Below, in pieces: positions 6,138-55,355 of a stretch of 64,000 nucleotides of DNA (positions are counted from its first letter, which is position 1; the number at the start of each line of letters is the position of its first letter). Location of the stretch: the NCBI GenBank assembly GCA_035631715.1, contig DASQIF010000042.1:1582-65581 (forward strand), in the 5' to 3' direction. The notes below the pieces were generated by a model. The model was given only the letters and a program-made list of their open reading frames with translations. It was not told the DNA's origin and ran no database searches. Made by a program: the position numbers and the translations under genes. The stretch comes from Candidatus Acidiferrales bacterium (GTDB lineage: Bacteria > Chloroflexota > Limnocylindria > P2-11E).

Positions 6138-6146
6138 AAAGCAGGC

Positions 6147-32757: not shown

Positions 32758-33273
32758 GTGATCCTGCCCAAGAAGCGCGATCCGCGGTTCATCACCATCC
32801 GTCGCGGCGGCACGCTGACGGACTCCGATCATCGGCTCCTGGCGGAGTGGGCCGCGCAGTGCGCCGAGCATGTGCTGCCGCTCTTCGAAGCGGTGCGGCC
32901 TCGGGATCGGCGGCCCCGCCGCGCCCTGGACCTGCTCCGCGCGTGGACGCGGGGCGATGTCACGATGACCGAGTCGCGCGCAGCCGCCGGTCACGCCAAC
33001 GCCGCGGCGCGAGATCTGTCCGGAGCGGCAAGACACGCGGCGTACGCGGCCGGCCAGGCCGCCGCCGTCGCGCACGTCGCGGCGCACGAGCTCGGCGCCG
33101 CGGCCTACGCGATCAAAGCGGTGCGGGCTGCCGCGCCGGAGGGCGAGGCCGATCGCGCCGGTCGGCGCGAGTTCCGCTGGCAGCGGTCGCGGCTGCCGAA
33201 GGCCATTCGCGCGCTCGTACTGGATGACGAGCGCCTCCGCAACGAGATCTGCTGGTCGGTGTTCGTGGTCTAA
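32758..33273 (+). CDS. Imm-5-like putative immunity-protein-family protein (all-alpha)
   Basis: The pattern LLAEWAAQCAEHVLPLFE...RPRRALDLLRAWTRGD matches my recollection of the Imm-5-like family, which is often mis-annotated as 'exonuclease SbcC' in actinomycetes. The assignment is from memory. Confidence 0.45.
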   Translation: MILPKKRDPRFITIRRGGTLTDSDHRLLAEWAAQCAEHVLPLFEAVRPRDRRPRRALDLLRAWTRGDVTMTESRAAAGHANAAARDLSGAARHAAYAAGQAAAVAHVAAHELGAAAYAIKAVRAAAPEGEADRAGRREFRWQRSRLPKAIRALVLDDERLRNEICWSVFVV

Positions 33274-34970: not shown

Positions 34971-35879
34971 CTAGAGGAGCTCGACGAACATCGCCCACTG
35001 GTCCTCAAGGTCGTCGATGCTCTCGGCCGGAAATGCAAGGGAGGCACACTCGTCGACGCCGAGGGCTTCGAGCCGCGCGATCTTCTCGCGGATCACGTCG
35101 GGCGAGCCCACCAGATTCGACGCGGTCATGAGCGATTGATCGCGACCGGTCGTGTCGCTGGTGAGACGATGACGAACGAAGCGACTCGATTCGTAGCGCC
35201 GCACCGCGTCCTCATGCCGTGGCGCGATCGTCGCGCTGAGCTCGGGCGCGATGGCGAAAGCGCGCGCGTCGCGCCCGTGTGCCGCCAGCTCACGCCGGAG
35301 CAAGTCGATGCGTTCGGTGAGCACATCGAAGGGCTGCCAGCCCGGCATCCAGCCGTCGCCCTCACGCGCGGCACGCGTCACCGCCGCGGTGCCGTGCCCG
35401 CCGACATAGATAGGAATACGCGCGTCGCCGAGGTGCGCGCGAAGCGCGGCGAGCGTCTCGGCGAAGAGCTCGGCGCGCGGCCGGCCGACGGCCTCGGGAC
35501 GGGTCTCGGCCAGCTCCTCGGGATACGCGCCCAGACCGAGGCCGAGCACGAAACGTCCGCCGGAGAGCGCCGCGAGGGTGGCGGCCTGGCGCGCGAGCAG
35601 GACCGGCTCGCGCAGCAGCAGCGCAAGCACGGCCGTCCCGAGGCGCACTCGCTGCGTGACGGACGCCACGGACGCGAGCGTGACCATCGCCTCGTAGAAG
35701 TGCGGCGACTCGCCGCGCAGAAACGCCGGCGTCACGAGGTGGTCGTTCGCCCAGAGGCCGTCGAACCCGAGGCGTTCAGCGGTGCGCGCGAGACGATGGA
35801 GCGACGACGGGTCGCGCACCATGCCGACCGGATAGCCCAGACCCTCATACGCGGTCGGCAGCGCGACGCTGAAGCGCAT
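34971..35879 (-). CDS. LLM-class F420-dependent oxidoreductase (Rv2161c-like subfamily)
   Basis: It has luciferase-like motifs (FDGLWANDH, RVRLGTAVLAL, GRFVLGLGLG). It is the last gene of the long minus-strand cluster. Confidence 0.8.
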   Translation of the reverse strand: MRFSVALPTAYEGLGYPVGMVRDPSSLHRLARTAERLGFDGLWANDHLVTPAFLRGESPHFYEAMVTLASVASVTQRVRLGTAVLALLLREPVLLARQAATLAALSGGRFVLGLGLGAYPEELAETRPEAVGRPRAELFAETLAALRAHLGDARIPIYVGGHGTAAVTRAAREGDGWMPGWQPFDVLTERIDLLRRELAAHGRDARAFAIAPELSATIAPRHEDAVRRYESSRFVRHRLTSDTTGRDQSLMTASNLVGSPDVIREKIARLEALGVDECASLAFPAESIDDLEDQWAMFVELL

Positions 35880-35883
35880 CGCG

Positions 35884-37338
35884 CTACGCGCCGCGAGTGA
35901 AACCGATGGGCAGCGCGCGCACCTTCGCCTCGAGACGCTCGAGCGTCGGCGCGAGCTCGGCGAAGCGCGCAGCGCGCGCCGGGAGCGTGGACCAGATGCC
36001 GTCGACCAGGCGCTGCGCGTCGGCGAGCAAAGCCGGAGCGTCGACGCTCTTCACCTTTCCGCCCGCGACCACGACGGCGCCGTCGATGATGACCGTGTCC
36101 ACCGAGCGGCCGACCTCGGCGTAGACGAGCTGATTCGCGATCTGCTCCTTCGGGCCGAGACGCAGCTCACCGGCGCGCAGCAGCGCCAGATCGGCGCGGT
36201 AGCCGGGCGCGATTCGGCCGATCTTCTGGCGCATCGCGCGCGCGCCGCCGTCCCACATCATGCGCAGCGCGTCCATCGCGGTCGGCCACTCCGACTGCGG
36301 GCGGTGCGGCCGCTGCAGGATCGCGGCTGACTTCAGCGTCTCGAACATGTTCTGGCTGTCGCTGCTCGAGGCGCCGTCCGTGCCCAGACCGACATGCACG
36401 CCGGTGCGCAGCATGTCGGGGATCGGCGCCACGCCGGCACCGAGCTTCTGGTTGCTCATCGGGTTGTGCACGACGTTGCCGCCGAGCTCGCCCAGACGCC
36501 GGACCTCGGCATCGTCGAGCCAGATCGCGTGCGCGAACGAGGTCCACTCGGCGATGCCGCCGATGCGCTCGAGGAACGCGACGGTCGATCCGCCGTAGCG
36601 CTCCTTTGCGAGCGGCACCTGCGACTTCGCGGACAGCAGATGCGTGTGCAAGGCCACACCGCGCCGCTTGGCGAGGTCGACGGACGCCTCGAACAGCTCG
36701 GTCGAGCAGCGTGGCAGCGACGACGGGCCGAGCAACGGGCGAAGCCGCGGGTGGCGTGTCGCCCATCGCTCGAGGAACGGCTCGAGCCGCGAGAGCAGCT
36801 CGGGGACCTTCGCCGTGCGTGGCCGTTCCGTGGCCTCGCCGATGAGCGACATCGGGAGCGAATCGAAGAACTCGAGATCGCTGTACTGCGCGGCGACGTT
36901 CGCGCGCATCCCCGAGTCGGCGTACGCGCCCATGATCTCGTCCATGCCCTCGTCGAACCAGCGCTGATCGCAGCGCGGGCAGTCGAGGACGCTGGTCGTC
37001 CCGGTGGCGATCATCTCGAGCGCGCCGACCATCGTCGAGAGATAGAGGTCCTTCGGCTTGAGGGTCGCTCCCGCGCCGCCGTACGAGGCGACGACCATCC
37101 ACGTGTCGAGCGGCAGCGCGTCGCACAGGCCCTTCTCGATGGACTGGTTCGAGTGCGTGTGCGCGTTGATGAGTCCGGGCATGACGATCGTCCCGGCGGC
37201 GTCGACGACCGCCGCGCCGCGCGCATCCAGATCCCGGCCGACCGCCACGATCGCGCCGTCGTCGACGAGCACGTCTGCAATCTCGAACGGCCGCTCCAGA
37301 TCGAAGACGTGACCGCCGCGGATCAGCGTCTTAGCCAT
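35884..37338 (-). CDS. Amidohydrolase (TRZ/ATZ, guanine/aminohydrolase, MtaD-like family)
   Basis: It has the motifs PGLINAHTHS, HTHL and GLGTDGASSSD. It is 4 nt from the next gene. Confidence 0.85.
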   Translation of the reverse strand: MAKTLIRGGHVFDLERPFEIADVLVDDGAIVAVGRDLDARGAAVVDAAGTIVMPGLINAHTHSNQSIEKGLCDALPLDTWMVVASYGGAGATLKPKDLYLSTMVGALEMIATGTTSVLDCPRCDQRWFDEGMDEIMGAYADSGMRANVAAQYSDLEFFDSLPMSLIGEATERPRTAKVPELLSRLEPFLERWATRHPRLRPLLGPSSLPRCSTELFEASVDLAKRRGVALHTHLLSAKSQVPLAKERYGGSTVAFLERIGGIAEWTSFAHAIWLDDAEVRRLGELGGNVVHNPMSNQKLGAGVAPIPDMLRTGVHVGLGTDGASSSDSQNMFETLKSAAILQRPHRPQSEWPTAMDALRMMWDGGARAMRQKIGRIAPGYRADLALLRAGELRLGPKEQIANQLVYAEVGRSVDTVIIDGAVVVAGGKVKSVDAPALLADAQRLVDGIWSTLPARAARFAELAPTLERLEAKVRALPIGFTRGA

Positions 37339-37912
37339 GCAGCCGCTTCTGGAACGCCGCGCGATCCTGGTACTGCGTCGTCGGGCCGGGATCTGCCGGA
37401 TACGGCGACGCCTCGGGATCGACGTGGAGCGCGAGAAGGCCGAGGGACGGCGGCTCGCCGTCGCGCTGGAGGAGCGCGGGGACGAGCTTGTCGAGCTGCG
37501 CCTCGTCGTGCGCTTCGCCGGTCCACGGGAACCCCGCCGCGCCGGCGATCTGCGTGTACGACACGCGGCCGGCGTTCGGGAGCGGCTGACCGCCGCCCGT
37601 CTCGTAGCGGTCGTTGATGAACACGGCGATGCGCAGGTTGGACGGCGCGGCGCCGGCCAGCGTCACGAGCGCGCCGAGGTTCATGGTGAGGTCGCCGTCG
37701 CCCTCGAGCAGGACGATGCGGCGACGCGGCTGCGCCAGCGCGAGTCCGAGCGCCAGCGCGGGCGCGGTGCCCATCGGGTCGGAGCCGTTGTACGTGAGCT
37801 GCGGCGCGCCCGCCTCGGCCCACGCGCGACGCGTCGAGCCGAGCCCGCAGACGACGATGTCGTCCGGCGCGAGGTGCTTCTTGAACGTGGCGGCTGCGGC
37901 GGCGCGGCGCAT
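37331..37912 (-). CDS. comE: Sulfopyruvate decarboxylase beta-subunit-like TPP enzyme (ComE-like, TPP-binding C-terminal half)
   Basis: It has the TPP motif LEGDGDLTMNLGAL. Its start is joined to the alpha subunit by a TGATG overlap. Confidence 0.75.
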   Translation of the reverse strand: MRRAAAAATFKKHLAPDDIVVCGLGSTRRAWAEAGAPQLTYNGSDPMGTAPALALGLALAQPRRRIVLLEGDGDLTMNLGALVTLAGAAPSNLRIAVFINDRYETGGGQPLPNAGRVSYTQIAGAAGFPWTGEAHDEAQLDKLVPALLQRDGEPPSLGLLALHVDPEASPYPADPGPTTQYQDRAAFQKRLHG

Positions 37913-38424
37913 CAGCCCGCCGCCGGGAAGAGCGCGGAGTGTCGCAGCAGCAGCACCATGGGCTTCTCGCGCGCTTCATCGACCGCGCTCGCGATCGTGT
38001 CGAGCTCGTCGGCGCGCGTGAGGACGCGATACGGGATGCGCAGACCCGCGAGCACGCCCTCGGTCACCAGACCCTTGTACTTCTGGTAGTGGAAGCGGTC
38101 GTCCTCGAGCCCGCGGTAGACGGCGAGGACGAGGAACCCGAGCTGATGGTTGTGCGCGTAGCCAGCCAGCGCGTTCGCCGACAGGAGCACGCCGGCGTTC
38201 TGGCACACCACCGCGGCGCGCTTGCCGCCCAGTGCGCAACCCGCGGCGATGCCGACGGCGTCGTCCTCTCGGCCGACGCGGATGTGGCGGATCTTCGGCT
38301 CGGCATCGATGCGCGCGAGCACCGGCGCGAGCCACGAGTCGGGCAGGCTCGCCGCGACCTCGACCTTCGCGGCGACGAGCGCCTTCACGACGCGCTCGGC
38401 GCTCGCGGCACCGGGCTCGCTCAC
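37912..38424 (-). CDS. comD: Sulfopyruvate decarboxylase alpha-subunit-like TPP enzyme (ComD-like, N-terminal pyrimidine-binding half)
   Basis: The GTG at 38424 is preceded by a GGGAGG SD. It matches the TPP_enzyme_N pattern (GREDDAVGIAAGCALGGKRAAVVCQNAG). Confidence 0.75.
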   Translation of the reverse strand: MSEPGAASAERVVKALVAAKVEVAASLPDSWLAPVLARIDAEPKIRHIRVGREDDAVGIAAGCALGGKRAAVVCQNAGVLLSANALAGYAHNHQLGFLVLAVYRGLEDDRFHYQKYKGLVTEGVLAGLRIPYRVLTRADELDTIASAVDEAREKPMVLLLRHSALFPAAG

Positions 38425-39656
38425 GCTGCCTCCCGGAAGAAACGGACCGCGGTGTCGGCGTACGCGCGCGCCGCCTGCACCAGATCGTCGAGCGACACGC
38501 TCTCGATGCGCGGGTCGTCGGCGCCCCGCGTGACCTGCGGACCCATGCGCGCGGTCGGGATGCCGCGCGCGAGCAGCAGCGCGCCGTCGGTGGCGCCGCT
38601 CCACGCGGTCACCGGCGCGAGGTCGCCGAACGCGTCGCGCCATGCGGCCGTCGCGTGGCGCACGATCGCGCTTTGGTCGTCAGTCGCGCCGCCGGGCCCG
38701 TACGCGTACACGTCGACGCTGACACGCGGTGAGCGGGGCAACGCGGCCGCGACCGGCGCGAGCGCGGAGGCGAGCTCGCGCGCGACCTGCTGCGCGTCGG
38801 CGTCGGGCAGCAGCACGGCGTAGAGGAACAGCTCGAGCGAGCCGGGGAGCAGATCGGGCTTCTCGGGGCTGCCCGAGCGGATCGCGCCGATCGCGATCTC
38901 GGGCGCGAGCTGCCCGCGTGCGGGATGCGCGGCGAGATACCGCGCGCGCCAGTCCTCGATCGCGCCGATGACCGTGTCGGCGTGGCGCGCGAGCCCGCCG
39001 TCGGGAGCGACGACACGGCGCGCGAGCGCGGCGTCCCACCGGTCGTGCAGGGCGACGCGCAGGTACGCCGCGGCCGGCTCCTCGCGCAGCACGCCTCGTG
39101 GCCCGGCCTTCACGTTCAGCACCGCGTCGGGCTTCCAACCGGCATCGAGCGCGTGCGCGACGCCGCGGCCGAACGCGCTCATCGCCGTGTCCGGATCGGC
39201 GCGGTGCGTACCCGTCGCCGCGAGCAGGAGCGTGAGGCGATGCGGGATCTTCGCGCCGCGCAGCGCGCGCGCGGCCGCGATGAACGCGGCGATGCCGGCG
39301 GCGGTCGGCGCCTTCGCCACACCGACGCCGAAGCCGCGCACGGCGCGGCCGCGTACCTCGAACGGCGCGGGCGGCGCGTCGGTGCCGGTGATGCCGCGGT
39401 CACGACGCGCGTCGCCGGTGAGGCTCGTGTCGAGGTGTCCGTAGATGGCGAGCTCGCGTGGCGCCTGGCCGGATGACGCGCGCGCGAACACGTTGGCGCT
39501 GCGCTCGTCGATCGCGTCGACGTCCCACGCCGCGTCGGGTGCGGCGACGCGGCCCCAGCGCACCACGGCCTCCGCGAGCTCGCGCTCCGCGCCGTGCGGG
39601 CTCGCGACGCTCAGCAGGACCTTGAGCGGCTCGAGGACATCGGCGTCGCCGATCAC
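38421..39656 (-). CDS. M20/M25/M40-family metallopeptidase/deacylase (ArgE/DapE-like)
   Basis: It has the motif IYGHLDT. The chosen GTG start at 39656 overlaps the upstream stop as GTGA, and its own stop overlaps the comD start. Confidence 0.65.
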   Translation of the reverse strand: MIGDADVLEPLKVLLSVASPHGAERELAEAVVRWGRVAAPDAAWDVDAIDERSANVFARASSGQAPRELAIYGHLDTSLTGDARRDRGITGTDAPPAPFEVRGRAVRGFGVGVAKAPTAAGIAAFIAAARALRGAKIPHRLTLLLAATGTHRADPDTAMSAFGRGVAHALDAGWKPDAVLNVKAGPRGVLREEPAAAYLRVALHDRWDAALARRVVAPDGGLARHADTVIGAIEDWRARYLAAHPARGQLAPEIAIGAIRSGSPEKPDLLPGSLELFLYAVLLPDADAQQVARELASALAPVAAALPRSPRVSVDVYAYGPGGATDDQSAIVRHATAAWRDAFGDLAPVTAWSGATDGALLLARGIPTARMGPQVTRGADDPRIESVSLDDLVQAARAYADTAVRFFREAA

Positions 39657-42600
39657 GCCGGGCCGACGATCCGTCCGGACACGCGCGTCGCGAGACCGAG
39701 CGCCGCGTCGAGCTTCCACGCGTTGCGCTCGAGTGGATGACCCTCGCGATCGAGCTCGGCGTCGAGGGCGCGGTGTAGGTCATCGGCCGTGGCCCGGCGT
39801 CCCTCGAGGGCGCGCTCGGTCGCGCGCGCGCGCCACGGTGTCGGCGCGATCGCGCCGAGCACGACGCGCACGTCACGCCACGTCCCGACCGGCTCGACGC
39901 GCGCCGACACCGCGGCCGACGCCAGCGCGAAGTCGCCCTGCCAGAGGCCGAGCTTCTCGAACGCGCCGCGGCGCGCGAGCGCGTCCGGTCCGATGCGGAT
40001 GCGCGTGACGAGCTCGCCGTCCTTCAGCACCGTCTCGCCAGGGCCGGTGTAGAAGTCCGACAGCGCGACGGTCCGCTCGCCGGCCGCGCCGCGGATCACC
40101 GCGTCGGCATCGAGGGCCACGAGCGCGGTCGCGAGGTCGGAGGGCGTGACGGCCTGGCAGCGATGCGCGCCGAGCGCGGCGTGATAGAAGCGGTGATCGC
40201 CCTGCACCGCGTAGCACGGACACGTCACGCCGCCCCGCTTGTAGCAATCGAAGCCGTTGCGGAAGAACCAGCAGCGCTTCCCCTGCACGAGGTTCCCGCC
40301 GACCGTCGCGACGGCGCGGATCTGGGTGGAGGCGATCGAGCGCGCCGCCTCCGCCAGCACGGGAACATGGGTCGCGAGCTCGCGCGCTACCTGGGCGAGC
40401 GTCACCCCCGCGCCGATCTCGAGCGCGCCGTCGTCGGCGGTGCGGATGCGCCCGAGCTCCTCGATCTCGGCGAGCGCGACGAGGCGCGTCGGGTTCGTGA
40501 GGCGCTGCCGCCGCTGCAGGAGGAGGTCGGTCCCGCCCGCGATCGCGGCGGCGTCCGGCCCGAGCGCGCGCACCGCATCGTCCAGCGTTGCCGGCGTGGC
40601 GATCTCGGCGATCGCGCGCCGCGGCCGGCGCTTCGCGAAGCGCGTGCCGATGTGGTCGAGGACCCAGTGCAGGCCGAGGGGATATGAGCGACGGATGAAT
40701 TCGATCTCCCATCGCTTCGGCCGCGCCCAGATGCGGAACGAGCGCCTTCGTCGATGCTCCTTCGCGGCAAGCGCCGCGAGGACCTTGTCCGGCGTGAACG
40801 GGAGGTCACGCAGGCGGATGCCGACGGCGTCGTAGATCGCGTTCGCGATCGCCGGCGCGGCCGGGATCACGGCGAGCTCGCCGATGCTCTTCGCGCCGTA
40901 CGGCCCGTTCGGGTCGGGATCCTCGACGAGGATCGGACGCACGCGCGGCACGTCGGCGGCACGCGGAAGCGCGTAATTGATGTAGGTCGGGTTCACCGGC
41001 CGGCCGTTCTCGTAGATGAGCTCCTCGCCGAGCACCGCGCCGAGGGCCATGACCACGCCACCGATGATCTGGCCCTCGACCATCATCGGGTTGATGGCCT
41101 TGCCGATGTCGTGGGCCGCGACGTAATCGAGGATCCGGATGCGCCCGGTCGCGCGGTCGACCTCGACCTCGGCGGCGTGCGCGGCGAAGGTGTACGCCGC
41201 GGAGAAGTTCGGCGACTTGCTCGACCCGGGCGGCTCCATGATCGTGTCGGTGTAGGCGTCCTCGTGCGTGAGCACGCCGCCCGCGGGCACGCGCTCCCCC
41301 GCCTTGAGACGCTCGGCCATGCCGCGCGCGGCCTTGCGCACCGCGTGACCGGTCATATAGGTGCCGCGCGATGACCACGCGCCCTGATCGATCGGGGTGC
41401 GCTCGCTGTCGATGGAGAGGACCTCGACGCGCTCGTACGCGAGGCCGAGCTCCTCGGCCGCGATCTGCGCGAGGATGCCGCGCTGTCCGGTGCCGGCATC
41501 GGCGCCGCCGAAGCGCACCCGCGCGCGGCCGTCCTCGTACAGATCGATCGCGGCCATGCTCGTGTTCGATCCGGGGATGGCGTACGAGCCGCTGCCGTGC
41601 ATGGCCGCTGCGACCCCGACGCCGCGCCCGGCGCGCTTGTTCCTGCGCTTCTCGGTCCAGCCGATCGCGTCGCGGACCGAGCGCAGGCAGTCGTCGAGCC
41701 GCGCCGAGGAGAGCTTCGCGCCGCAGAGGGCGACGGTGTTCGGCTGGTTCGCGTTCTGGATGCGCAGCTCGAGCGGGTCGCGGCCGAGCTGCTCGGCCAG
41801 CTCGTCGACCGCGCTCTCGAGCGCGAACGACGCCTGCGGGCTGCCATAGCCGCGGAACTGGCCCCCGGGCACGAGGGCCGTGTCGATGAGGCGTGCGTCC
41901 CAGACGACGCCGTCGGGCATGTAGATCGTGCCGAAGGTCTTGAGGCCGACGTGCATCACCGAAGGGCCGAAGTGGTTGTACGCGCCGTTGTCGACGTCGA
42001 TGCGCGAGTCGAAGAGCGTGATGCGGCCGTCGCGGTCGGCGCGAGCCTCGAGGTGGACGCGGAACGCGTGGCGCGGCTTCGTGTACGCGAACTCCTCCTC
42101 GCGGGAGAGCGCGATCTTCACCGTGCGACCGCTCTTGCGCGCGAGCGCGGCGGCGAGCGCCTCATGCTCGGAGACCTTGGACTTCGATCCGAAGCCGCCG
42201 CCCACCGCGACCTCGCGGCAGATGACCTGCTCGCGCTTGAGGCCGAAGACTTTGGCGAGCTCGCTCACCACGAAGTGCGGCGCCTGCGTCGACGTCCAGA
42301 GCTCGAAGCGCTCGGCCTCCGTGTCCCAGCGCGCGATGCAGATGTTCTGCTCCATGACCGCGTGTCCGACGCGCGGATACCAGTACGTGCCGCGCGAGAT
42401 CACCGAGCCGTTGCGCCGTCCGAGCTCGGCGTCGCCCCACATGCCGGCGCTCTTCAGCGACACGTTCCCTTCGCCGGTCTTGCGCTGGTGCAGACGGAGC
42501 GCGCCAGGGGCGAGCGCCTCGTCGATGGTGAGCGGCGCGCGATGCGGTCGGTACTTGACGACGATCGCGTCGAGCGCGTCGGCGGCCTGCTCCTCGGTGT

Positions 42601-42919
42601 CGGCCGCGACCGCGGCGACCTCCTCGCCGACGTAGCGGACCACGCTCACCGCGAGCGGACCGCGGTCCGACGTGTCGCCGCCGCTGTGGATGTAGCGCGC
42701 GCCGGGCGGGAAGTCTTTCGCGGTGATGACCGCGCGGACGCCGGGCATGGTCTCGGCACGCGTCGTGTCGATCGAGAGGATGTCCGCGTAAGGGTGCGGC
42801 GAGCGCAGGATGCGGCCGGCGATGACGCCCTCGATCGGCAGGTCCGCGGTGTACGCGTCGGTGCCCGCGGTGCGCTTGTCCCAGCCGATCGCGCGGACGC
42901 GCTGGCCGACGACGGTCAT
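39653..42919 (-). CDS. Xanthine dehydrogenase/CO dehydrogenase-family molybdopterin hydroxylase: natural fusion of large (CoxL-like) and FAD-binding medium (CoxM-like) subunits
   Basis: It is a 1088-aa continuous ORF. The first ~740 aa carry aldehyde-oxidase/xanthine-dehydrogenase Mo-binding motifs (GGGFGSK, IGELAVIPAAPAIANA). A basic linker follows, then a ~290-aa FAD_binding_5/CO-dehydrogenase flavoprotein domain (AIAGGTDLLL). Confidence 0.85.
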   Translation of the reverse strand: MTVVGQRVRAIGWDKRTAGTDAYTADLPIEGVIAGRILRSPHPYADILSIDTTRAETMPGVRAVITAKDFPPGARYIHSGGDTSDRGPLAVSVVRYVGEEVAAVAADTEEQAADALDAIVVKYRPHRAPLTIDEALAPGALRLHQRKTGEGNVSLKSAGMWGDAELGRRNGSVISRGTYWYPRVGHAVMEQNICIARWDTEAERFELWTSTQAPHFVVSELAKVFGLKREQVICREVAVGGGFGSKSKVSEHEALAAALARKSGRTVKIALSREEEFAYTKPRHAFRVHLEARADRDGRITLFDSRIDVDNGAYNHFGPSVMHVGLKTFGTIYMPDGVVWDARLIDTALVPGGQFRGYGSPQASFALESAVDELAEQLGRDPLELRIQNANQPNTVALCGAKLSSARLDDCLRSVRDAIGWTEKRRNKRAGRGVGVAAAMHGSGSYAIPGSNTSMAAIDLYEDGRARVRFGGADAGTGQRGILAQIAAEELGLAYERVEVLSIDSERTPIDQGAWSSRGTYMTGHAVRKAARGMAERLKAGERVPAGGVLTHEDAYTDTIMEPPGSSKSPNFSAAYTFAAHAAEVEVDRATGRIRILDYVAAHDIGKAINPMMVEGQIIGGVVMALGAVLGEELIYENGRPVNPTYINYALPRAADVPRVRPILVEDPDPNGPYGAKSIGELAVIPAAPAIANAIYDAVGIRLRDLPFTPDKVLAALAAKEHRRRRSFRIWARPKRWEIEFIRRSYPLGLHWVLDHIGTRFAKRRPRRAIAEIATPATLDDAVRALGPDAAAIAGGTDLLLQRRQRLTNPTRLVALAEIEELGRIRTADDGALEIGAGVTLAQVARELATHVPVLAEAARSIASTQIRAVATVGGNLVQGKRCWFFRNGFDCYKRGGVTCPCYAVQGDHRFYHAALGAHRCQAVTPSDLATALVALDADAVIRGAAGERTVALSDFYTGPGETVLKDGELVTRIRIGPDALARRGAFEKLGLWQGDFALASAAVSARVEPVGTWRDVRVVLGAIAPTPWRARATERALEGRRATADDLHRALDAELDREGHPLERNAWKLDAALGLATRVSGRIVGPA

Positions 42920-43785
42920 GCCGCGAGGCTCCGGAGACGCGGCAGCAGCGCAGCCGCGGTCTCGACCGCCGCCCGCACGTCGGCGCTCGTGTGCGCCTGC
43001 ACCGGGAACAGCATGAAGTCGGTGAAGCCGTGCTCGAGCGAGCGGCGCGCGATCTCGACCGGCGTGTCGCTGCCGTCCGCGAGCATCACGTGCGCGCGTC
43101 GGATCGTCTTCGGGTCACGGCCCACGGCACGACAGTGCTCGTCGAGGACCTTCGATAGCGCATACGTCGACTCCATGGCCGCACCGTTCGTCGGCCAGAC
43201 GTCGCAGCTCCACACGTCGGCGCGCTTGGCGGCGACGCGCAGCGTGCGCTTCGGTCCGTTGCCGCCGATCCAGAGCGGCGGGCCCGGGCGCTGCAGCGGC
43301 TTCGGCTCGCAGATCGCGTCGTGCAGCTGGTAATAGCGGCCGTCGAACGACGCGCGCGGCTCGGTCCAGAGGGCCTTCAGCACCTGACACGCCTCGTCGA
43401 GCCGCTCGATGCGCTCACGCGCGCTCGTCGGGAATGGCATGCCGTACGTCGCGAACTCGGATGCGTTCCACCCCGCGCCGATCCCCATCTCGAGACGGCC
43501 GCCCGAAAGGTGATCGACCGTGACCGCGATCTTCGCCAGCAGGCCCGGATGGCGGTAGAGGTTGCCGGTGACGTTGAGGCCGATGCGCACGCGCTTCGTG
43601 CGCTCGGCGACGGACGCGAGCGTCGTCCATCCGTCGAAGACCGGGCCCTCTTGATGAATCGCGACGAGATGGTCGAAGAGCCAGAGATGGTCGAAGCCCG
43701 CCTCGTCCACCATGCGCCACGCCTCGCGCTGTGACTCGAGCGAGAAGATCTGCTGCGACAGCTTGAGGCCGACACGCAGCTTCAC
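42916..43785 (-). CDS. LLM-class F420-dependent oxidoreductase (Rv1855c-like)
   Basis: A GTG start overlaps the coxS-like stop, and its stop overlaps the start of the Mo subunit. It has luciferase-like motifs (FDHLWLFDHL, GRLEMGIGAGW). Confidence 0.8.
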   Translation of the reverse strand: MKLRVGLKLSQQIFSLESQREAWRMVDEAGFDHLWLFDHLVAIHQEGPVFDGWTTLASVAERTKRVRIGLNVTGNLYRHPGLLAKIAVTVDHLSGGRLEMGIGAGWNASEFATYGMPFPTSARERIERLDEACQVLKALWTEPRASFDGRYYQLHDAICEPKPLQRPGPPLWIGGNGPKRTLRVAAKRADVWSCDVWPTNGAAMESTYALSKVLDEHCRAVGRDPKTIRRAHVMLADGSDTPVEIARRSLEHGFTDFMLFPVQAHTSADVRAAVETAAALLPRLRSLAA

Positions 43786-44273
43786 TCGCCGGCCGCGGCA
43801 GCGCCTGCCGCGCGCCGCGCGGCCCGCTTCCGCGCGGTCATGAGCACCGCGTCGACGATCTGCGCGTATCCGGTGCAGCGGCACACGTTTCCCGACATCT
43901 GCTCGCGCACGGTGCGCTCGTCAGGGACACCGCCGCCGGCGAGCAGCGCCTGCGCGCGCACGACCTGGCCGGGCGTGCAGAAGCCGCACTGGAAGGCGCC
44001 GGCGTCGGCGAAGGCCTCGCGCAGATCGCGCGCATCCTCGGCGATGCCCTCGATCGTCGTGACCTCGCCGCGCACGAGGGACGCGAGCTGGATGCACGAC
44101 ATCACCGGCTGTCCGTCGATGAGCACGGTGCAGGCGCCGCACTCTCCGCGCTCGCACGCCGCCTTCGCGCCGGTCAGGCGGAGACGTTCGCGCAAGACGT
44201 GCAGCAGCGTGTCGCCGGGCGCGAGCTCCACGTCGGCGTCGCGGCCGTTCACGCGCAGGCGGCGCGCGCTCAT
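43782..44273 (-). CDS. (2Fe-2S)-binding small subunit of molybdopterin hydroxylase (CoxS-like)
   Basis: It has two [2Fe-2S] motifs (CERGECGACTV and CGFCTPG...CRCTGY). Confidence 0.9.
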   Translation of the reverse strand: MSARRLRVNGRDADVELAPGDTLLHVLRERLRLTGAKAACERGECGACTVLIDGQPVMSCIQLASLVRGEVTTIEGIAEDARDLREAFADAGAFQCGFCTPGQVVRAQALLAGGGVPDERTVREQMSGNVCRCTGYAQIVDAVLMTARKRAARRAAGAAAAGE

Positions 44274-44277
44274 GGGG

Positions 44278-45153
44278 CTAGAGGTCGTGCCAGTCGTCGG
44301 CTGCGGGACGCCACACGTCGATGTTCCGCGCGTCGATCGACATGCGTCGCGGCTTGGCGGTCGCGTGCTCCTCTTCGGTGAGGCGGCGGTGGCCGTCGCA
44401 CAGCTCGATGCGCGGCCCGTGCCTGTCGTCCTCGATGTAGAAGGCGATCGACTTCGAGGCAGAGTGATTCGCCATGTCCGCGGCGATGCGGACCTTGTCG
44501 TATACGGCGAGCGCGCGGCCCCGCATCACGTGGTCGAGGCTCTTCATCGCGAAGCAGATGTGCGCGATCTCCTTCTCTTTGGAGCGGCGCATGGCGAAGG
44601 AGTGGTGGAGACGGTTCTCGCTCCGAAGGAACGCGGTCACGTTCGCGATGTAGTCGGACGCGCGGAAGCCGAGCACGTCGAGATAGAACTTCAGGGTCTC
44701 GTCGAACTTCGGCGTCCCGATGAACGGGTGGACGATGTAGGCCGGCGTGTAGAACAGCGACGGCATCTCCGCCCACTCCTGGTAGTCGGTGAAGAACTCG
44801 AGGGTGTTGCCCGCGGGGTCGACCGTCGCGAAGCCGCCGGCGCACCACTGCTTCTGCGCCTCGTCCAGCTCCTTGACCGGTGCGCCCGACGCCTTCACGC
44901 GCTGCTTGATCCCCTCGAGGACCTCCTCCGACTCCACGCTGAAGCCGAACGCGCGGACCTCGTGCTTCTTGAGCGCGCGGTCCTCGACCAGATCGAGCGA
45001 GTGGTGCGGCAGGCCCGCGCGCAGGTACGTGTGACCGTCGGTCTTGCCGGCGAGATCGACGCCGACGTACTTCATGTACCACGCCTTCGTCGCCTCGAGA
45101 TCGGGCACGGCGATGCGCGCGTACTCGAAGCTGTAGGGGCCCTTCATCGTCAT
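44278..45153 (-). CDS. Two-domain VOC-family extradiol ring-cleavage dioxygenase (catechol 2,3-dioxygenase-like)
   Basis: The ATG at 45153 is preceded by a GGGAGGTG SD. It has a duplicated glyoxalase/VOC fold and metal-binding His/Glu positions. Confidence 0.7.
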   Translation of the reverse strand: MTMKGPYSFEYARIAVPDLEATKAWYMKYVGVDLAGKTDGHTYLRAGLPHHSLDLVEDRALKKHEVRAFGFSVESEEVLEGIKQRVKASGAPVKELDEAQKQWCAGGFATVDPAGNTLEFFTDYQEWAEMPSLFYTPAYIVHPFIGTPKFDETLKFYLDVLGFRASDYIANVTAFLRSENRLHHSFAMRRSKEKEIAHICFAMKSLDHVMRGRALAVYDKVRIAADMANHSASKSIAFYIEDDRHGPRIELCDGHRRLTEEEHATAKPRRMSIDARNIDVWRPAADDWHDL

Positions 45154-45181: not shown

Positions 45182-45667
45182 TCACAGGATGAAACTAAGC
45201 CGTCCGCCGGGCCGGAGCACCTCGAGCTCGAGCACCGCCCGGCGCTTCCAGAATCGCAGGCGACCGCCCTCGGTCGAGAGCACATGCTCGTACCGGCCGA
45301 CGAACTGGTCGACGTTGCCGTCGCGGATCTTGTAGATGAGGAACGCCGCGTACACCGGCAGGAGCGTGCCGTCGGCCTTGCCCAGGCGCACGTTCGTCAC
45401 GAGACGGCGGGTGCGCGAGTGCGGGTTCTCCGCGTGCGCGTGTTTGCTCTTCAGCCGGCGCACGCGCGCGGAGAGGAGCTCGTAGTCGTCCCACACGTAG
45501 TACTGCGAGCGACGCGGATCCTCGTTCGGACGGTCGGTCGTCGGCACCTCGTACGTGGCGCCCGGCTCGAACGTCTGGAGCCACTCGTCCAGCCGCCACG
45601 CGTCGAGGAGCGCGGCGTCCTCGAAGAGGAAGTCCTCGACCTCCTGGCGCGTGACCGTGGCGATCAC
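45182..45667 (-). CDS. Aromatic ring-hydroxylating dioxygenase beta (small) subunit
   Basis: It has an NTF2-like fold and the motif FLFEDAALLDAWRLDEWL. It is joined to the alpha subunit by an ATGA overlap. Confidence 0.85.
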   Translation of the reverse strand: MIATVTRQEVEDFLFEDAALLDAWRLDEWLQTFEPGATYEVPTTDRPNEDPRRSQYYVWDDYELLSARVRRLKSKHAHAENPHSRTRRLVTNVRLGKADGTLLPVYAAFLIYKIRDGNVDQFVGRYEHVLSTEGGRLRFWKRRAVLELEVLRPGGRLSFIL

Positions 45668-46986
45668 CGCGGCGCCGACCCGCTCAGGACGTCGTCCCAG
45701 TGACGCCAGAAGCCGCGGATGCCGGCTTCGTCGACGTTGCGCGCCGGCTGACCCTCGGCCTCACGCGCCATGCCGCGGCTGATGTCGCTCCAGTCCACGG
45801 CGGGGCGCGGATCGCCCGCGGTCGCGACGATGCCGCGCTGCACGCACTCGTACGCCTCGACGTCGTCGGGGGTCGCGAGACCGCCGGGGCCGATGAACGA
45901 GCCGAGGATGCGGATGCGCAGCTCGCGCTCCTCCGGTGTCTCGGTCGCCGGCGCGAGCTCCCAGGCGCGGACGTCGGTGAAGTCGGGGCGGACCGGCTCG
46001 AGCTGCCGCGCCGCGAGCCCCTCGATGTCGAAGAGCAGCAGGTTCGGGAAGACGTAGAGGATGCGGCTCGTGCTCGCGATGCGCTTCGCGCGCTCCTCGC
46101 CGACGCGGCCCGCGAGACGCTTCACGTTCTGCTCGGTGAGCGACTTCTGCGCCTCCCCGAAGCGCGGCTCCCACTGCATGCCGACGCGGCCGCCGTGTCC
46201 TGAGAACACCAGCACGCTGTGCCCGTTCTCGAGCGTGATCGCGCGGCCGCCCTCGTCGCTCGTCACGTACCCCGTGGTCTTCAGGTACTCGACGAACGTC
46301 ACGTGCGTCGGCGAGAAGTGGTAACCGTCCATGGCGTTCTCGACCGCGAGCTTCCAGTTCCCGCGGATCGCGTACATGTGCGTGCCCGGGATGACCTCGA
46401 GGCCGCGCTCGGAATGGTCGACCATGAGGTCGAGGTAGTCGCGCGCGTCGGCGAGGTGCTCCTTCAGGCTCGGGCCGTCGGCGGCGAACGAGACGAAGAC
46501 GAAGCCCCGGTAGTTCTCGAAGCGCGGCGGCTGTCGCAGACCCATCTCCGCGGCGAACCCGCGCTCCGGCGGATACGCACCGGGATCGGGGATGCCGACG
46601 AGCTCACCGGTGTTGGCGAACGTCCACGCGTGATAGAAGCACTGATAGGTCTTCGTGTTGCCCTCGGTCTCGCGGCAGAGCACCGTGCCGCGATGCGGGC
46701 AGGAGTTCAGGTAGGCGCGGACACGGCCCATCGAGTCGCGCGCGAAGATGAGCGGCCGTCCCGCGAGCGTGCGCTGCTTGAAGTCACCGGTGTTCGGCAC
46801 CTCGGTCTCGTGGCCGAGATAGAGCCAGCTGCGGTCCCAGATGAGCCGCCGCTCGTCGTCGAGGACCTCCGGCGAGCGGAACGCCTCGCGGTTCACGCGG
46901 AAGATGCGCCGGCCCCAGTCCTCCTGTATGAACCGGGTGCTGCGGTCGGCGGTCCGCGGCCGAGCGTCGATCGTCGTCTGCGTCAT
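45664..46986 (-). CDS. Rieske non-heme iron aromatic ring-hydroxylating dioxygenase alpha subunit
   Basis: It has a Rieske motif (CPHRGTVLCR...CFYHAW) and a mononuclear iron site (DGYHFSPTH). The start is at MTQTTIDARP. Confidence 0.9.
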   Translation of the reverse strand: MTQTTIDARPRTADRSTRFIQEDWGRRIFRVNREAFRSPEVLDDERRLIWDRSWLYLGHETEVPNTGDFKQRTLAGRPLIFARDSMGRVRAYLNSCPHRGTVLCRETEGNTKTYQCFYHAWTFANTGELVGIPDPGAYPPERGFAAEMGLRQPPRFENYRGFVFVSFAADGPSLKEHLADARDYLDLMVDHSERGLEVIPGTHMYAIRGNWKLAVENAMDGYHFSPTHVTFVEYLKTTGYVTSDEGGRAITLENGHSVLVFSGHGGRVGMQWEPRFGEAQKSLTEQNVKRLAGRVGEERAKRIASTSRILYVFPNLLLFDIEGLAARQLEPVRPDFTDVRAWELAPATETPEERELRIRILGSFIGPGGLATPDDVEAYECVQRGIVATAGDPRPAVDWSDISRGMAREAEGQPARNVDEAGIRGFWRHWDDVLSGSAPR

Positions 46987-47048: not shown

Positions 47049-48050
47049 CTATCGGGGCGGCCTCAGCGCGTAGTCGGCGCCCATCGCGACGCCGACGAGC
47101 CCGGAGAGGTTCGCGAGCGAGAACACGATCCGCGTCTCCTCGCCGCCGGCGCGCACGCCAACGGTGATGCCGTTGCGGCGCGGCGGGAGACACACGATGT
47201 CGCCGCGCTCGGTCGCGAACGACTCGTCGTCGACGTCGATGATCGGCCTTCCGGCGAGGACGTAGGCGTAGCCGTTCCCGGGCATGGTGAGCAGCTCGCT
47301 CTCCTGTCGCGGCTCGAGGCGCTGCGTGAACACGAACATCGGCGCGGTCCCGGCGAACCCGGGCGCCGCCGGGTGCACGTACCACCGGAGCTCGCCGAAG
47401 CCGTTCTTGTCGACGGGCAGGTCCGCTCGGCGGATGAGGGCCGGCGGATGCAGCGTCTCGCGCTGCCGGTCGCGGAGCTCGATGAGGCCCGCGAGGGTCG
47501 GCGATGACGGCGCGCTCGCGACGCCGCGATCGACGGCCTTCCCGGCCTTGGCCGCCTCCCATTTCGACTCGCGCGTCTGCGGCTCGAGCTGCACCATCTC
47601 CGCCCCAAGCCCCACCACGAGCGGCTCGTAGATGATGCCCATGAATTTCGACGGCCGGTCGTCGCGCGCGCGGAAGTGCTGGTGGTCGAGACCGCCCGGG
47701 ACGATCGGGAGGAGCACGGCGTCCTCCGCGGTCCAGTCGAAGCGCTGTCCGTTCACGACGCTGTAACCGTCGCCCTCGACGCCGAAGATGGTGATGCCGC
47801 CCTGGTGGGTGTGACGGCCGCTCGGGACACCGGTGTGATCGCGAACGAAGACGACCCACTGCGTGAGAGCGAGCTCCTCGAACTGCGGCATCACGTAGAA
47901 CTGGCTCGTGCCCTGTCGACTGTCGACGACCGGCACGTCCGTCCTCTTGATGTGCAGCTTCCCGTAGTGCGCTCGCTTGTAGAGCTGCTCCCACCGGGTG
48001 AACAGGTCGTCGTAGTCGCGTCCGGTGGTCACGGTCACGGTGCGGCTCAC
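47049..48050 (-). CDS. Bicupin dioxygenase-like protein (gentisate/1-hydroxy-2-naphthoate 1,2-dioxygenase-like)
   Basis: It has two cupin barrels with His-rich motifs (HTHQGG in the first). A GTG start overlaps the IclR stop as GTGA. Confidence 0.65.
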   Translation of the reverse strand: MSRTVTVTTGRDYDDLFTRWEQLYKRAHYGKLHIKRTDVPVVDSRQGTSQFYVMPQFEELALTQWVVFVRDHTGVPSGRHTHQGGITIFGVEGDGYSVVNGQRFDWTAEDAVLLPIVPGGLDHQHFRARDDRPSKFMGIIYEPLVVGLGAEMVQLEPQTRESKWEAAKAGKAVDRGVASAPSSPTLAGLIELRDRQRETLHPPALIRRADLPVDKNGFGELRWYVHPAAPGFAGTAPMFVFTQRLEPRQESELLTMPGNGYAYVLAGRPIIDVDDESFATERGDIVCLPPRRNGITVGVRAGGEETRIVFSLANLSGLVGVAMGADYALRPPR

Positions 48051-48901
48051 GCGGATCTCCCGTTCATCGCTGTCTCGGGCAGCGCGCCGAAGTCGCGCGA
48101 CAGCTGCGACGCCGTCGCGAGGAGCGCGCGAGCCATGTGCGAGCTCGTGGACTCGGGCACCGACGCGCTCGTGCCGACGATGGCGACGGCGGCGATGCAG
48201 TGGTCGCCCTGGTACACCGGCGCCGCGAGGGCGCGGATCCCGGGTTCGACCTCGGATGCCTCGGCGATGCCCTCCTTGCGGATGCGACGCAGCTCGGCCG
48301 CGAGGCCGGTCTCGCGTCGCAGCGCGCGCCGTAGGCCGGAGATGTCCGACTCGGGCAGGAACGCGCAGAACACGCGGCCCTGGCTCGAACGGAACGGCGT
48401 GAGACGCGCCCCGGTGTGGATGCTGATGCGCACGAGCCGGTCGGGGTTGTCGTCGACGCGCACGACGATCGGCGCCTCACCGTCCCAGATGGAGAGCACC
48501 ACCGTCTCGTTCACCTTGCGCACCAGGGCCTCCATGTGCGGGCCCGCGATCGCCACCACGGGCAGGCCCGCGCCGGCGGCCGCGGACAGCGTGAGGACCT
48601 GCGGGCCGAGGGTGTACTCGTTCGTCGCGGGATCGAATCGCAGCAGGTTCGCCTGTCGCAGCGCGACGGTGTAGCGGTGCGCGGTGGCGCGGCTCACGCC
48701 GAGGCGCGCGGTGATCTCCGACAGCGAGCGCCGCGGCCGGCCGACGGTGAAGAAGCCGAGGATGTGGGCCGCGCGGGCCACCGACTGGATCGCCGACTCG
48801 TGGCCATTGGCATCTTTCGTGGCCCGGAGAGCGGCGCGATCTCGCACGACGGCGAGTGGTGTAGCACGGGCCGCTGTGCGCGTCGAGGCGCGTCGCGTCA
48901 T
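48047..48901 (-). CDS. IclR-family transcriptional regulator
   Basis: It has an N-terminal HTH (IQSVARAAHILGFF...LSEITARLGVSRATAHRYTVAL) and a C-terminal IclR effector domain. It is embedded in the operon by overlaps on both sides. Confidence 0.85.
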   Translation of the reverse strand: MTRRASTRTAARATPLAVVRDRAALRATKDANGHESAIQSVARAAHILGFFTVGRPRRSLSEITARLGVSRATAHRYTVALRQANLLRFDPATNEYTLGPQVLTLSAAAGAGLPVVAIAGPHMEALVRKVNETVVLSIWDGEAPIVVRVDDNPDRLVRISIHTGARLTPFRSSQGRVFCAFLPESDISGLRRALRRETGLAAELRRIRKEGIAEASEVEPGIRALAAPVYQGDHCIAAVAIVGTSASVPESTSSHMARALLATASQLSRDFGALPETAMNGRSA

Positions 48902-49679: not shown

Positions 49680-50570
49680 TCAGTTCAGGCCGAGGACGCG
49701 CGAGGGATTGTCGCGGACCATCTTTCGCAGATCGCGTTCGCTCACCCCGAGGTCGTTCAGCTCGCCGAGCAGCTTCTTGAACGACTCGACCGGGAGCGGG
49801 TTGTTCACCTGACCGAGATCGCTCCCGATGCTCGTGCGGTCCGCGCCGACGAGGTCGATCCAGCCCTTCAGCTTCGCCGCATCCCAGTGATAGAACTCCG
49901 ACGCCTCGTCGTACATGCAGCACTCGTGCTCGATGAGCGCGCCGGTGTCCGCGAACTTCACGACCTGCTCGCGCGTCGCCTCGATGACGTACTCGGGGTG
50001 GTTCACCACCATGCGCTTCACGCCGGTGTCGCGCGCCGCCTCGAGCAGGATCTGGATGCGGTCCGGCGCCTGGTGTCCCGCGGCCACGACCGCGTCGGCG
50101 TCGGCGATCATCTTGAGGATCACCGGGACCTCCGGCCGGAGCGATCCCTGCTCGTCGAGGATGTCGACGATGTCTGGCTTGCGCAGCGGGACGCTCGGCT
50201 TCGGGAACTTCAGATCGGGATGCGCGGCCTGGTGCTCCTGATGGCGGCGCGCGGAGATCGTCGGGAACCACACGATCTTTGCGCCCATCTTGAGCGCGAG
50301 GTCGACCGCCGAGGGATTCAGGCCGCCGACCATCGAGTTGAGCGCGATCGATCCGAACACCTTCGTCTTGATGCCGTCGAAGTACGGCGCCATCGCGCGC
50401 ACGTCCATCACCGTGGGGTGGTGGTGCGACTTCACGACGATCGCGCGCATCCCCTCCTTGTCCGCCATGCGCGCCGCCTCGACGTGGTCCATGCGGCGCG
50501 GGAACGGCGAGGGACCCGAATGACAGTGCAGGTCGACCGCGCCCTCGAGGATGCGATCGATCGTGCTCAT
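49680..50570 (-). CDS. Amidohydro_2 (PF04909-like) TIM-barrel metal-dependent hydrolase/decarboxylase-family protein
   Basis: It has the N-terminal motif VDLHCH and a C-terminal PSRVLGLN typical of amidohydrolase-2. An ATGA overlap joins it to the upstream gene. Confidence 0.7.
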   Translation of the reverse strand: MSTIDRILEGAVDLHCHSGPSPFPRRMDHVEAARMADKEGMRAIVVKSHHHPTVMDVRAMAPYFDGIKTKVFGSIALNSMVGGLNPSAVDLALKMGAKIVWFPTISARRHQEHQAAHPDLKFPKPSVPLRKPDIVDILDEQGSLRPEVPVILKMIADADAVVAAGHQAPDRIQILLEAARDTGVKRMVVNHPEYVIEATREQVVKFADTGALIEHECCMYDEASEFYHWDAAKLKGWIDLVGADRTSIGSDLGQVNNPLPVESFKKLLGELNDLGVSERDLRKMVRDNPSRVLGLN

Positions 50571-54813: not shown

Positions 54814-55277
54814 GACCCGAGGGTACGCTCGCGCACTTTGCGGATGCTCTGCCAGATGTCGTCGGTCTGCATGGCGACCTCAGAGAGACCGATCTGGTCC
54901 TGGTAAATGGACGCGTCGGCCTTCTCCCGAACCTCTGGTTCGGTCACGTGATAGACGGGGAGTCCCAACGAGACTCCGGCCAGCGGACCTGTGTATGTCG
55001 GATCGCCTGCGGTGACCGTCTCAGCCATCATCTCGACGTACGCGGGCTCGGCCGCTCCGAGGATCACTACCAGCCCGTCCTTGCCCTGCGTGTCGTAGAT
55101 GCGCTTGATCTCGGTCTGCTCATCCAGGTCCGAGGCACCGGCGCTCGTTCAGACGAAGCACTGATTCAGCTCGAGCAGCACTTCGGCGCCGGCGCTCCGC
55201 GCCACCGCCGCGATCGCTGTCGCCTGCACTCCGTCACGCTCGCCGATCGCGATGACCTTCTTGCCTTGAAGATCCAA
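54810..55277 (-). CDS. grdA: Glycine/sarcosine/betaine reductase selenoprotein A (GrdA) with in-frame UGA-selenocysteine at 55149..55151
   Basis: A TTG start is preceded by a strong GGAGGGAGGTGA SD. Reading through the in-frame TGA gives MDLQGKKVIAIGERDG...NQCFV-U-TSAGASDLDEQ...AETVTAGDPTYTGPLAGV, which is collinear with the GrdA consensus including the CFVUT motif. The ORF table lists only the 85-aa C-terminal part. Confidence 0.8.
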
Positions 55278-55355
55278 TCGTTCACCTCCCTCCGACTTTC
55301 TTCTCATCGAGTATCGCATTGCGAGGTGCCGTCACGCTAGACGAGACGGCGCATG

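Follow-up and report, generated by a model that had tools for sequence, protein, structure and literature searches.

The DNA analysed here, a window of 64,000 nucleotides from contig DASQIF010000042.1 of a metagenome-assembled genome (MAG) registered as Candidatus Acidiferrales bacterium, carries on its minus strand an operon in which the genes of a molybdenum (Mo) hydroxylase are combined with that of a luciferase-like monooxygenase (LLM). The predicted products are, in order, a Rieske dioxygenase, an extradiol dioxygenase, the small iron-sulfur subunit of the Mo enzyme (S), a first LLM (LLM1), one polypeptide uniting the large, Mo-binding and the medium, FAD-binding subunits (L-M), an M20 hydrolase, a two-subunit thiamine pyrophosphate (TPP)-dependent decarboxylase, an amidohydrolase and a second LLM (LLM2) (Table 1). 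An earlier note, made from the sequence alone, had drawn attention to S, LLM1 and L-M as minus-strand open reading frames (ORFs) coupled by GTGA and ATGA overlaps, and all three ORFs and both overlaps are indeed present: S ends with GGC GAG TGA and the GTG start of LLM1 lies within GAGTGAAG, while LLM1 ends with GCA TGA and L-M begins with ATG ACC GTC. The G+C content at third codon positions (GC3) of 0.88–0.93 across the three ORFs and the hundreds of homologues of each indicate real genes. We consider it likely that L-M is a natural fusion of a large and a medium subunit belonging to the subfamily of LumJ, the Mo hydroxylase of lumichrome catabolism, that it stands in a lum-like operon, and that LLM1 is an oxidoreductase recruited to the pathway rather than a partner of the Mo enzyme.

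The L-M polypeptide comprises five Pfam domains in L-then-M order, which confirms the fusion of the large and FAD subunits reported in the earlier note. The L part consists of Ald_Xan_dh_C (the a/b hammerhead; residues 19–125, E-value 4.5e-26), MoCoBD_1 (162–390, 3e-65) and MoCoBD_2 (416–658, 1e-61), all above the gathering scores, and the FAD part of FAD_binding_5 (773–976, 6.5e-43) and CO_deh_flav_C (988–1054, 1.1e-11) with conserved GGTD and GGN motifs. Around the Mo site, E681, G240, G241, F243 and G244 (GGxFG, 240–244) and R356 (FRGYG) are invariant in the 79 fusion proteins aligned, and Q212 of the active-site glutamine motif is found in 70 of them; we take E681, the GGGFG stretch, the FRGYG arginine and the glutamine to be the counterparts of residues in bovine xanthine oxidase and D. 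gigas MOP, a correspondence based on motif recognition and not on structural superposition. The cysteine motifs of the S subunit, CERGECGAC...C and CGFC...CRC, are readable in its translation. As predicted from these domains and motifs, S and L-M constitute a Mo hydroxylase of the xanthine oxidase family with a separate subunit carrying two [2Fe-2S] clusters and with fused large and FAD subunits. Identities as 4-hydroxybenzoyl-CoA reductase, xanthine dehydrogenase or CO dehydrogenase were rejected, the scores against the respective NCBIfam equivalog models all being far under the cut-offs; for the L-M protein and 4-hydroxybenzoyl-CoA reductase these are 525.4 vs 994.55 (TIGR03194) and 143.8 vs 404.55 (TIGR03195).

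A protein search yielded at least 120 clusters, defined at the 90% identity level, whose members are full-length L-M fusions with the same five domains, lengths of 1088–1154 aa and 53–81% identity to the protein of the window. They include proteins from sequenced isolates of Actinomadura, Spirillospora, Pimelobacter simplex, Rhodococcus, Amycolatopsis, Streptomyces radicis and Eoetvoesiella caeni. With each species represented by a single genome, a scan gave 188 matching stretches, of which 80 were kept for locus comparisons; the motif alignment and the neighbour-joining (NJ) tree comprised 79 fusion proteins. The protein is fused in every one of the 80 loci, matching query residues ~1–1080 without a break, and in about 74 of them the S gene immediately precedes L-M, no other gene intervening. 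The fusion, presented in the earlier note as a peculiarity of this locus, is thus the standard form of a large and widespread family. The basic linker quoted in that note, AAKEHRRRRSFRIWARPKRW, is located at residues ~718–737 of the 1088-aa protein, and R726, R733, P734, W737, R743, Y746, G749 and L754 of the linker region are at least 97% conserved among the 79 proteins. An AlphaFold2 model of L-M (pTM 0.83) places helices at residues 735–748 and 750–760 of the linker, with pLDDT values of 55–77.

The possibility that a sequencing or assembly indel had joined separate L and M genes deserved attention, as the window belongs to a MAG, where indels can occur, and a single-base indel had been named in the earlier note as what would undo its claim. 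We regard this explanation as practically negligible. The same architecture of 1088–1154 aa recurs in the at least 120 independent clusters, complete isolate genomes among them, and in the 80 loci, the linker residues are conserved as described, and GC3 is uniform at 0.93 along the whole L-M ORF. The conserved fused architecture and linker rule out a frameshift artefact.

The FAD domain contains a further feature that the earlier note had not described. FAD_binding_5 extends over 204 residues for 163 profile positions, which corresponds to an insert of about 40 aa, and the four cysteines C883, C892, C902 and C921 in it are invariant in 79 of 79 fusion proteins. The three best matches of the M domain in the PDB are 5y6q_B, 1rm6_B and 5g5g_B (PaoB), which we take to be [4Fe-4S]-bearing FAD subunits of the family. 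In the alignment of the M domains the insert cysteines pair one-to-one with four cysteines of PaoB and of 5y6q_B. The agreement with HcrB (1rm6_B) is less complete: only C883 and C921 of the four invariant cysteines meet a cysteine, the variable C900 instead of C902 meets the third one and Y911 meets the fourth. On the basis of this sequence alignment, the insert is a putative [4Fe-4S] site. In a Foldseek comparison of the AlphaFold model with the PDB only the Mo part aligned (~760 columns), and the L-then-M order occurred in no solved chain among the top hits.

The gene context points to a recently described pathway. A 25-gene lum operon of Nocardioides (Pimelobacter) simplex ATCC 6946, responsible for the catabolism of lumichrome, a fragment of vitamin B2, was reconstituted in vitro in November 2025 (PMC12746152). 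In this pathway LumH, LumI and LumM hydrolyse the pyrimidine ring of 7-carboxylumichrome, LumI requiring a ring-opened ureido substrate, and the two-subunit TPP enzyme LumK/L decarboxylates the resulting 3-oxo-quinoxaline-2-carboxylate (PMC12746152). LumJ, termed ‘quinoxaline oxidase’ or ‘xanthine oxidase’ and in 2025 the first family member to be studied, converts 7-methyl-2-oxo-1,2-dihydroquinoxaline-6-carboxylate (compound 22) to the 2,3-dione (30a) with PMS as acceptor, and ring opening is the task of two dioxygenases, the Rieske enzyme LumABCD and the extradiol enzyme LumE (PMC12746152). LumJ is given as a 140-kDa protein with FeS, FAD and Mo domains in the classical order, the paper being silent on the L-before-M topology and on a separate S ORF (PMC12746152). 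At the locus of N. simplex ATCC 6946 in our set (L033, 9387..13360), S (16–22 kDa) and L-M (~120 kDa) have ORFs of their own, which overlap by ATGA, and their sum of about 136–142 kDa equals the reported 140 kDa. That paper and its commentary were the only reports of fused L-M Mo hydroxylases or of quinoxaline hydroxylases found in the literature searched, in which the widespread fused topology is thus undescribed.

The gene order at L033 follows the letters of the paper, namely Rieske alpha and beta subunits (LumC, LumD), extradiol dioxygenase (LumE), M20 hydrolase (LumF), amidohydrolase (LumH), isochorismatase (LumI), S, L-M (LumJ), TPP decarboxylase (LumK, LumL) and amidohydrolase (LumM). 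The comparison used 23 kb of L033, and LumB, LumU and LumW/X/Y fall outside that stretch. L-M is 54–56% identical to LumJ over residues 1–1085 and shares its L-linker-M layout, the cysteine insert and the linker motifs. The homologues of LumK/L, LumM, LumI, LumC/D and LumE in the window, with 44–63% identity, are in the same operon as L-M or within 7 kb of it (Table 1).

Table 1. Genes and protein features of the lum-like cluster in the 64,000-nucleotide window. Percentages, apart from that in the IclR row, are identities to the N. simplex ATCC 6946 locus L033.
Feature	Position	Strand	Product	Evidence
S subunit	43782..44273	-	163 aa, 2x[2Fe-2S] ferredoxin-like	Pfam Fer2 + Fer2_2; 50–57% to S ORF upstream of LumJ
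LLM1	42916..43785	-	289 aa from GTG	Pfam Bac_luciferase; TIGR03560 family (F420-type)
L-M fusion	39653..42919	-	1088 aa: Mo/molybdopterin domain, linker, FAD domain	predicted LumJ-like N-heterocycle hydroxylase
Linker between L and M domains	40604..40759	-	residues ~721–772	basic, conserved
Cys-rich insert in FAD domain	40157..40273	-	residues 883–921	putative [4Fe-4S] site
Rieske dioxygenase alpha (LumC-like)	45664..46986	-	440 aa, ATG at 46986	Pfam Rieske + Ring_hydroxyl_A; 57% to LumC
Rieske dioxygenase beta (LumD-like)	45182..45667	-		Pfam Ring_hydroxyl_B; 54%
Extradiol dioxygenase (LumE-like)	44278..45153	-	291 aa	Pfam Glyoxalase; 53% to LumE
M20-family metallohydrolase (LumF-like)	38421..39656 or to 39719	-		Pfam Peptidase_M20; 41% to M20 gene
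TPP-dependent decarboxylase alpha (LumK-like)	37912..38424	-		Pfam TPP_enzyme_N, NCBIfam sulfopyruvate decarboxylase alpha; 50%
TPP-dependent decarboxylase beta (LumL-like)	37331..37912	-		44% to ORF between LumK and LumM; orthologue in L082 has TPP_enzyme_C
TRZ/ATZ-type amidohydrolase (LumM-like)	35884..37338	-		Pfam Amidohydro_1; 52% to LumM over 485 aa
LLM2, last gene of the operon	34971..35879	-		Pfam Bac_luciferase; best NCBIfam TIGR03619, 153.5 bits, below cut-off 166.9
Isochorismatase-family hydrolase (LumI-like, RutB/biuret-hydrolase-like)	50567..51241	-		Pfam Isochorismatase; 63% to ORF directly upstream of S
Cupin-domain protein, directly upstream of dioxygenase genes	47049..48050	-		Pfam Cupin_2; kept in L002, L004, L081, L082, L088
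IclR-family regulator	48047..48901	-		Pfam HTH_IclR + IclR_C; 49–59% homologues flank lum-like clusters in many loci

Fusion proteins whose genes have lum-type neighbours, that of the window included, cluster in the NJ tree, and the split of the window protein plus LumJ from a clade of non-lum paralogues was recovered in 100/100 bootstraps. The assignment to the LumJ type thus rests on synteny and phylogeny, not on identity. Several observations weigh against the reading as a lum-like quinoxaline hydroxylase. The smallest clade joining the window protein and LumJ appeared in only 16/100 bootstraps, the raw identity is 56% to LumJ vs 57% to a non-lum paralogue of the same P. simplex strain, homologues of LumH and LumA are absent from the 64-kb window, and the putative [4Fe-4S] site is an alignment result. 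Given the low clade support and the undiscriminating identities, the substrate is assigned mainly from synteny, and the enzyme may in truth act on another alloxazine, quinoxaline or related N-heterocycle. A second S-LM pair is found in P. simplex (L075) and in Nocardioides carbamazepini (L018) in another gene context, one that lacks TPP decarboxylase, LumM and Rieske genes, and a large clade (L020–L071) has contexts of this kind. These non-lum contexts indicate that the fused family covers further substrates.

By analogy with LumJ, the Mo centre would convert an intermediate of the quinoxalin-2(1H)-one type to a quinoxaline-2,3-dione by a water-dependent hydroxylation of the C-H position beside a ring nitrogen. 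The electrons might pass from Mo to the two [2Fe-2S] clusters in S and further to the FAD in the M domain, and from there, probably via a [4Fe-4S] cluster on the four invariant cysteines, to an acceptor. The operon as a whole might serve to decarboxylate a ureido- or amino-quinoxaline carboxylate and to hydroxylate the product, two ring cleavages completing the sequence.

The predicted product of the gene between S and L-M, LLM1, matches Bac_luciferase (2.8e-48) and exceeds the cut-offs of TIGR03560, the Rv1855c family (245.7 vs 231.4 bits), and of TIGR03619 (169.4 vs 166.9). A protein identical to LLM1 is named in NCBI as a member of the same F420-type family, and its nearest relatives in the PDB are F420 enzymes. 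These matches support LLM1 as a predicted F420-type oxidoreductase, in agreement with the earlier note. We know of no characterised member of the TIGR03560 family. Orthologues of LLM1 (62–86% identity) are confined to lum-like clusters of the Limnocylindria/Chloroflexota type, and all such clusters examined carry one; the L-M proteins of relatives that keep it are 71–81% identical to that of the window, and their LLMs 62–80% to LLM1. More distant homologues (59–63%) reside in an unrelated, conserved tRNA_edit/serA/serC/rpe neighbourhood, and in the tree the lum-associated LLMs form a clade of their own, apart from this housekeeping paralogue. From these patterns LLM1 appears to have been recruited in the Limnocylindria-type lineage by duplication of the housekeeping paralogue and to be a stable member of the cluster there. 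The alternative of a neutral passenger without any role in the pathway might be derived from the abundance of LLM genes in the region, five in 64 kb, and from the variable position of LLM1 within the cluster; its retention in every Limnocylindria-type cluster examined and its distinct clade make such a passenger improbable. The statement of the earlier note that LLM1 is no chance insertion therefore holds.

The five LLM genes lie at 14920..16020 (+), 34971..35879 (-), 42916..43785 (-), 60433..61509 (-) and 63215..63931 (-). The first of them passes the F420-type model TIGR03617 (382 vs cut-off 278), and the Mer-like fourth one adjoins a flavin reductase gene (59848..60420), like a two-component monooxygenase. 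LLM2 has orthologues of 52–55% identity at the same position in L002–L004.

The earlier note had gone further and proposed a functional partnership, such as the regeneration of an electron acceptor or a downstream reduction step. In such a reading LLM1 would associate with the Mo hydroxylase physically or in a redox sense, for instance by regenerating its acceptor via F420, and translational coupling would keep the three proteins stoichiometric. The S-LLM-LM order with 4-bp overlaps in the window speaks for it, as do the same order in L002, L004 and L082 and its preservation, with gaps of 70–80 nt, in the more distant L088 and L089; moreover, the physiological acceptor of LumJ-type enzymes is not established, PMS having served in vitro. 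Against this stand about 74 of the 80 S-LM loci, that of the characterised LumJ included, which have no LLM between the two genes or nearby, so that the Mo enzyme can do without it. In L001, L083 and L090 the arrangement is S-ABC transporter-LLM-(two reverse genes)-LM, LLM1 being separated from S and L-M by the transporter gene and the two genes of opposite strand, and in L081 LLM1 is placed beside dioxygenase genes (extradiol dioxygenase-LLM-ABC transporter), S and L-M being absent from the 6 kb around it. Nor are the overlaps a sign of a complex, because most genes of this operon are joined in this way: of the 11 junctions between the cupin gene and LLM2, 7 are overlaps of 1–8 bp and two are gaps of 4 nt, counted with gene starts (those of the LumC- and LumE-like genes included) picked by homology to the L082 gene calls. 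LLM enzymes are, furthermore, known as substrate oxidoreductases and not as electron-transfer proteins. We therefore judge the partnership to be very improbable, slightly more so than a passenger role; the data give no support for redox cooperation with the Mo enzyme, nor was anything found in favour of acceptor regeneration. An LLM as a general partner of S-LM enzymes was likewise rejected on its absence from about 74 of the 80 loci, the weak LLM matches (26–36% identity) near other S-LM loci belonging to different LLM subfamilies. In the preferred reading, LLM1 most likely acts on a small-molecule intermediate as one of the pathway enzymes and would be neither a subunit nor an acceptor-regenerating partner.

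A more specific role for LLM1 is suggested by the distribution of LumH. LumH orthologues (63–95% identity) occur in 17 of 17 LLM-less lum-like loci, in the order H-I-S-J, and none was detected in the window or in the LLM1-bearing loci L001, L002, L004, L081–L083 and L088–L090. LLM1, possibly together with LLM2, might replace the LumH step by using redox chemistry to open or prepare the alloxazine's pyrimidine ring and thereby feed the RutB-like LumI, be it by a Rut-like oxidative cleavage or by an F420H2-dependent reduction followed by hydrolysis. In the uracil-degrading Rut system, RutA is an LLM-fold enzyme cleaving the N3-C4 bond of uracil and RutB is an isochorismatase-family hydrolase. 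The complementary distribution of LumH and LLM1 and this precedent are consistent with such a replacement, as is the retention in the window of a LumI homologue (63%), an enzyme that needs a ring-opened ureido substrate and whose best NCBIfam matches are RutB and, next to it, BiuH, both below cut-off. The absence of LumH wherever LLM1 is present, combined with the retention of LumI, thus weakly suggests that the LLM may replace the ring-opening hydrolase. The pattern, however, reflects one evolutionary event in two clades and carries little statistical weight. LLM1 scores only 64.4 bits against RutA (TIGR03612; cut-off 498.3) and passes the cut-offs of F420 families instead, and F420 enzymes are, to our knowledge, not known as oxygenases. 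The operon has no flavin reductase gene, the nearest one (59848..60420) adjoining another LLM. L088 has, between its extradiol dioxygenase and S genes, an additional amidohydrolase that could fulfil this function; this 382-aa protein (6086..7234) is 30–35% identical to LumM-type amidohydrolases and 47% to a gene of L054 and may be an alternative ring-opening hydrolase. On balance we consider the replacement of LumH by LLM1 rather unlikely, although clearly less so than the partner and passenger roles. The same tentative standing applies to the broader proposal that the Limnocylindria-type operon is a variant route for lumichrome/riboflavin, or for another alloxazine or quinoxaline, in which F420-type LLMs replace the steps of LumH and/or of the P450 LumU. 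A redox-assisted ring opening, if true, would be new chemistry for an enzyme of the TIGR03560 family.

Some further observations concern the surroundings of these genes. For the M20 gene two starts come into question: with GTG at 39656 the protein has 411 aa and the gene overlaps L-M by 4 bp, and GTG at 39719 entails an overlap of 67 nt but a length, 432 aa, that nearly equals the 431 aa of the L082 orthologue. A GMC-family oxidoreductase gene (51311..53347, -) adjoins the LumI-like gene (50567..51241); the pair lies 6 kb upstream and is 76–86% identical in L002 and L004. The GMC enzyme could act as the alcohol oxidase of a hydroxymethyl intermediate, in place of the oxidases of N. simplex. 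Further upstream, 53389..57970 (-) contains Gly_reductase/GRDB-like genes (component B of glycine/sarcosine/betaine reductase) and a DUF5940/ACP_syn_III protein, and paralogues of the reductase-B-like genes (42–53%) are the reversed genes between LLM1 and L-M in L001 (7161..9784), L083 (6881..9564) and L090 (7958..10638). Just past the operon end is an unrelated gene for an Imm5-like putative immunity protein (32758..33273, +; Pfam 2.7e-38). A protein 100% identical to L-M is labelled in NCBI as deriving from a ‘Candidatus Acidoferrales’ (Acidobacteriota) MAG, whereas the nearest loci for the cluster (77–80% identity) all belong to Limnocylindria/Chloroflexota MAGs, a discrepancy that might be due to mis-binning, mislabelling or horizontal transfer.

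The analysis assigns a cluster of an uncultured lineage from soil to the catabolic pathway recently described for vitamin B2/lumichrome (quinoxaline). This pathway is known from Nocardioides, and lum-like clusters were found here also in other Actinomycetota and in Chloroflexota MAGs. Beyond the earlier note, the cysteine insert in the FAD domain, the conservation of the linker and the lumichrome/quinoxaline context have been added. The current understanding is not overturned, as the fusion is common and the reaction type is known. The enzyme type and its reaction have been known since 2025, and the S-LLM-LM arrangement together with the LumH-less cluster is a modestly new, lineage-specific operon variant; correspondingly, the earlier note's reservation that such arrangements might already be characterised applies to S-LM, through LumJ (PMC12746152), and not to S-LLM-LM. 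The permuted topology of the LumJ type, with a separate S and with L fused via a conserved linker to an M domain of the [4Fe-4S] type, is useful for expressing or modelling such enzymes, and the LumH-less, LLM-containing variant is a testable lead to the function of the F420-type LLM family and to alternative ring-opening chemistry.

Among known systems, the LumJ locus of N. simplex is the closest counterpart, having an L-linker-M polypeptide after a separate S gene and, as neighbours, LumC, D, E, F, I, K, L and M. It differs from the window in that no LLM stands between S and L-M, LumH and LumI are directly upstream of S, and LumA is present. The pairing of an LLM gene with a RutB-like hydrolase gene (50567..51241), in a cluster that needs the opening of a uracil-like ring, recalls the Rut pathway; LLM1, however, is not of the RutA family, as its score indicates, and the analogy is a hypothesis only. 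With regard to the Mo enzyme itself, 4-hydroxybenzoyl-CoA reductase (HcrABC) provides the best PDB match of the L part (1rm6_A, E-value 6e-107; Foldseek TM-score 0.87 normalised to the target). HcrABC, PaoABC of E. coli and the Methylobacillus aldehyde oxidase (5y6q) consist of three separate subunits, in contrast to the fused L-M described here, while PaoB and 5y6q_B share its insert Cys-for-Cys. Eukaryotic xanthine dehydrogenase and aldehyde oxidase, which combine S-M-L in one chain, and XdhAB of Rhodobacter capsulatus, with S-M fused and L separate, contain the same cofactor-binding domains and offer a precedent for the fusion of subunits. Compared to these, the order found in the window is permuted, with L preceding M and S encoded separately.

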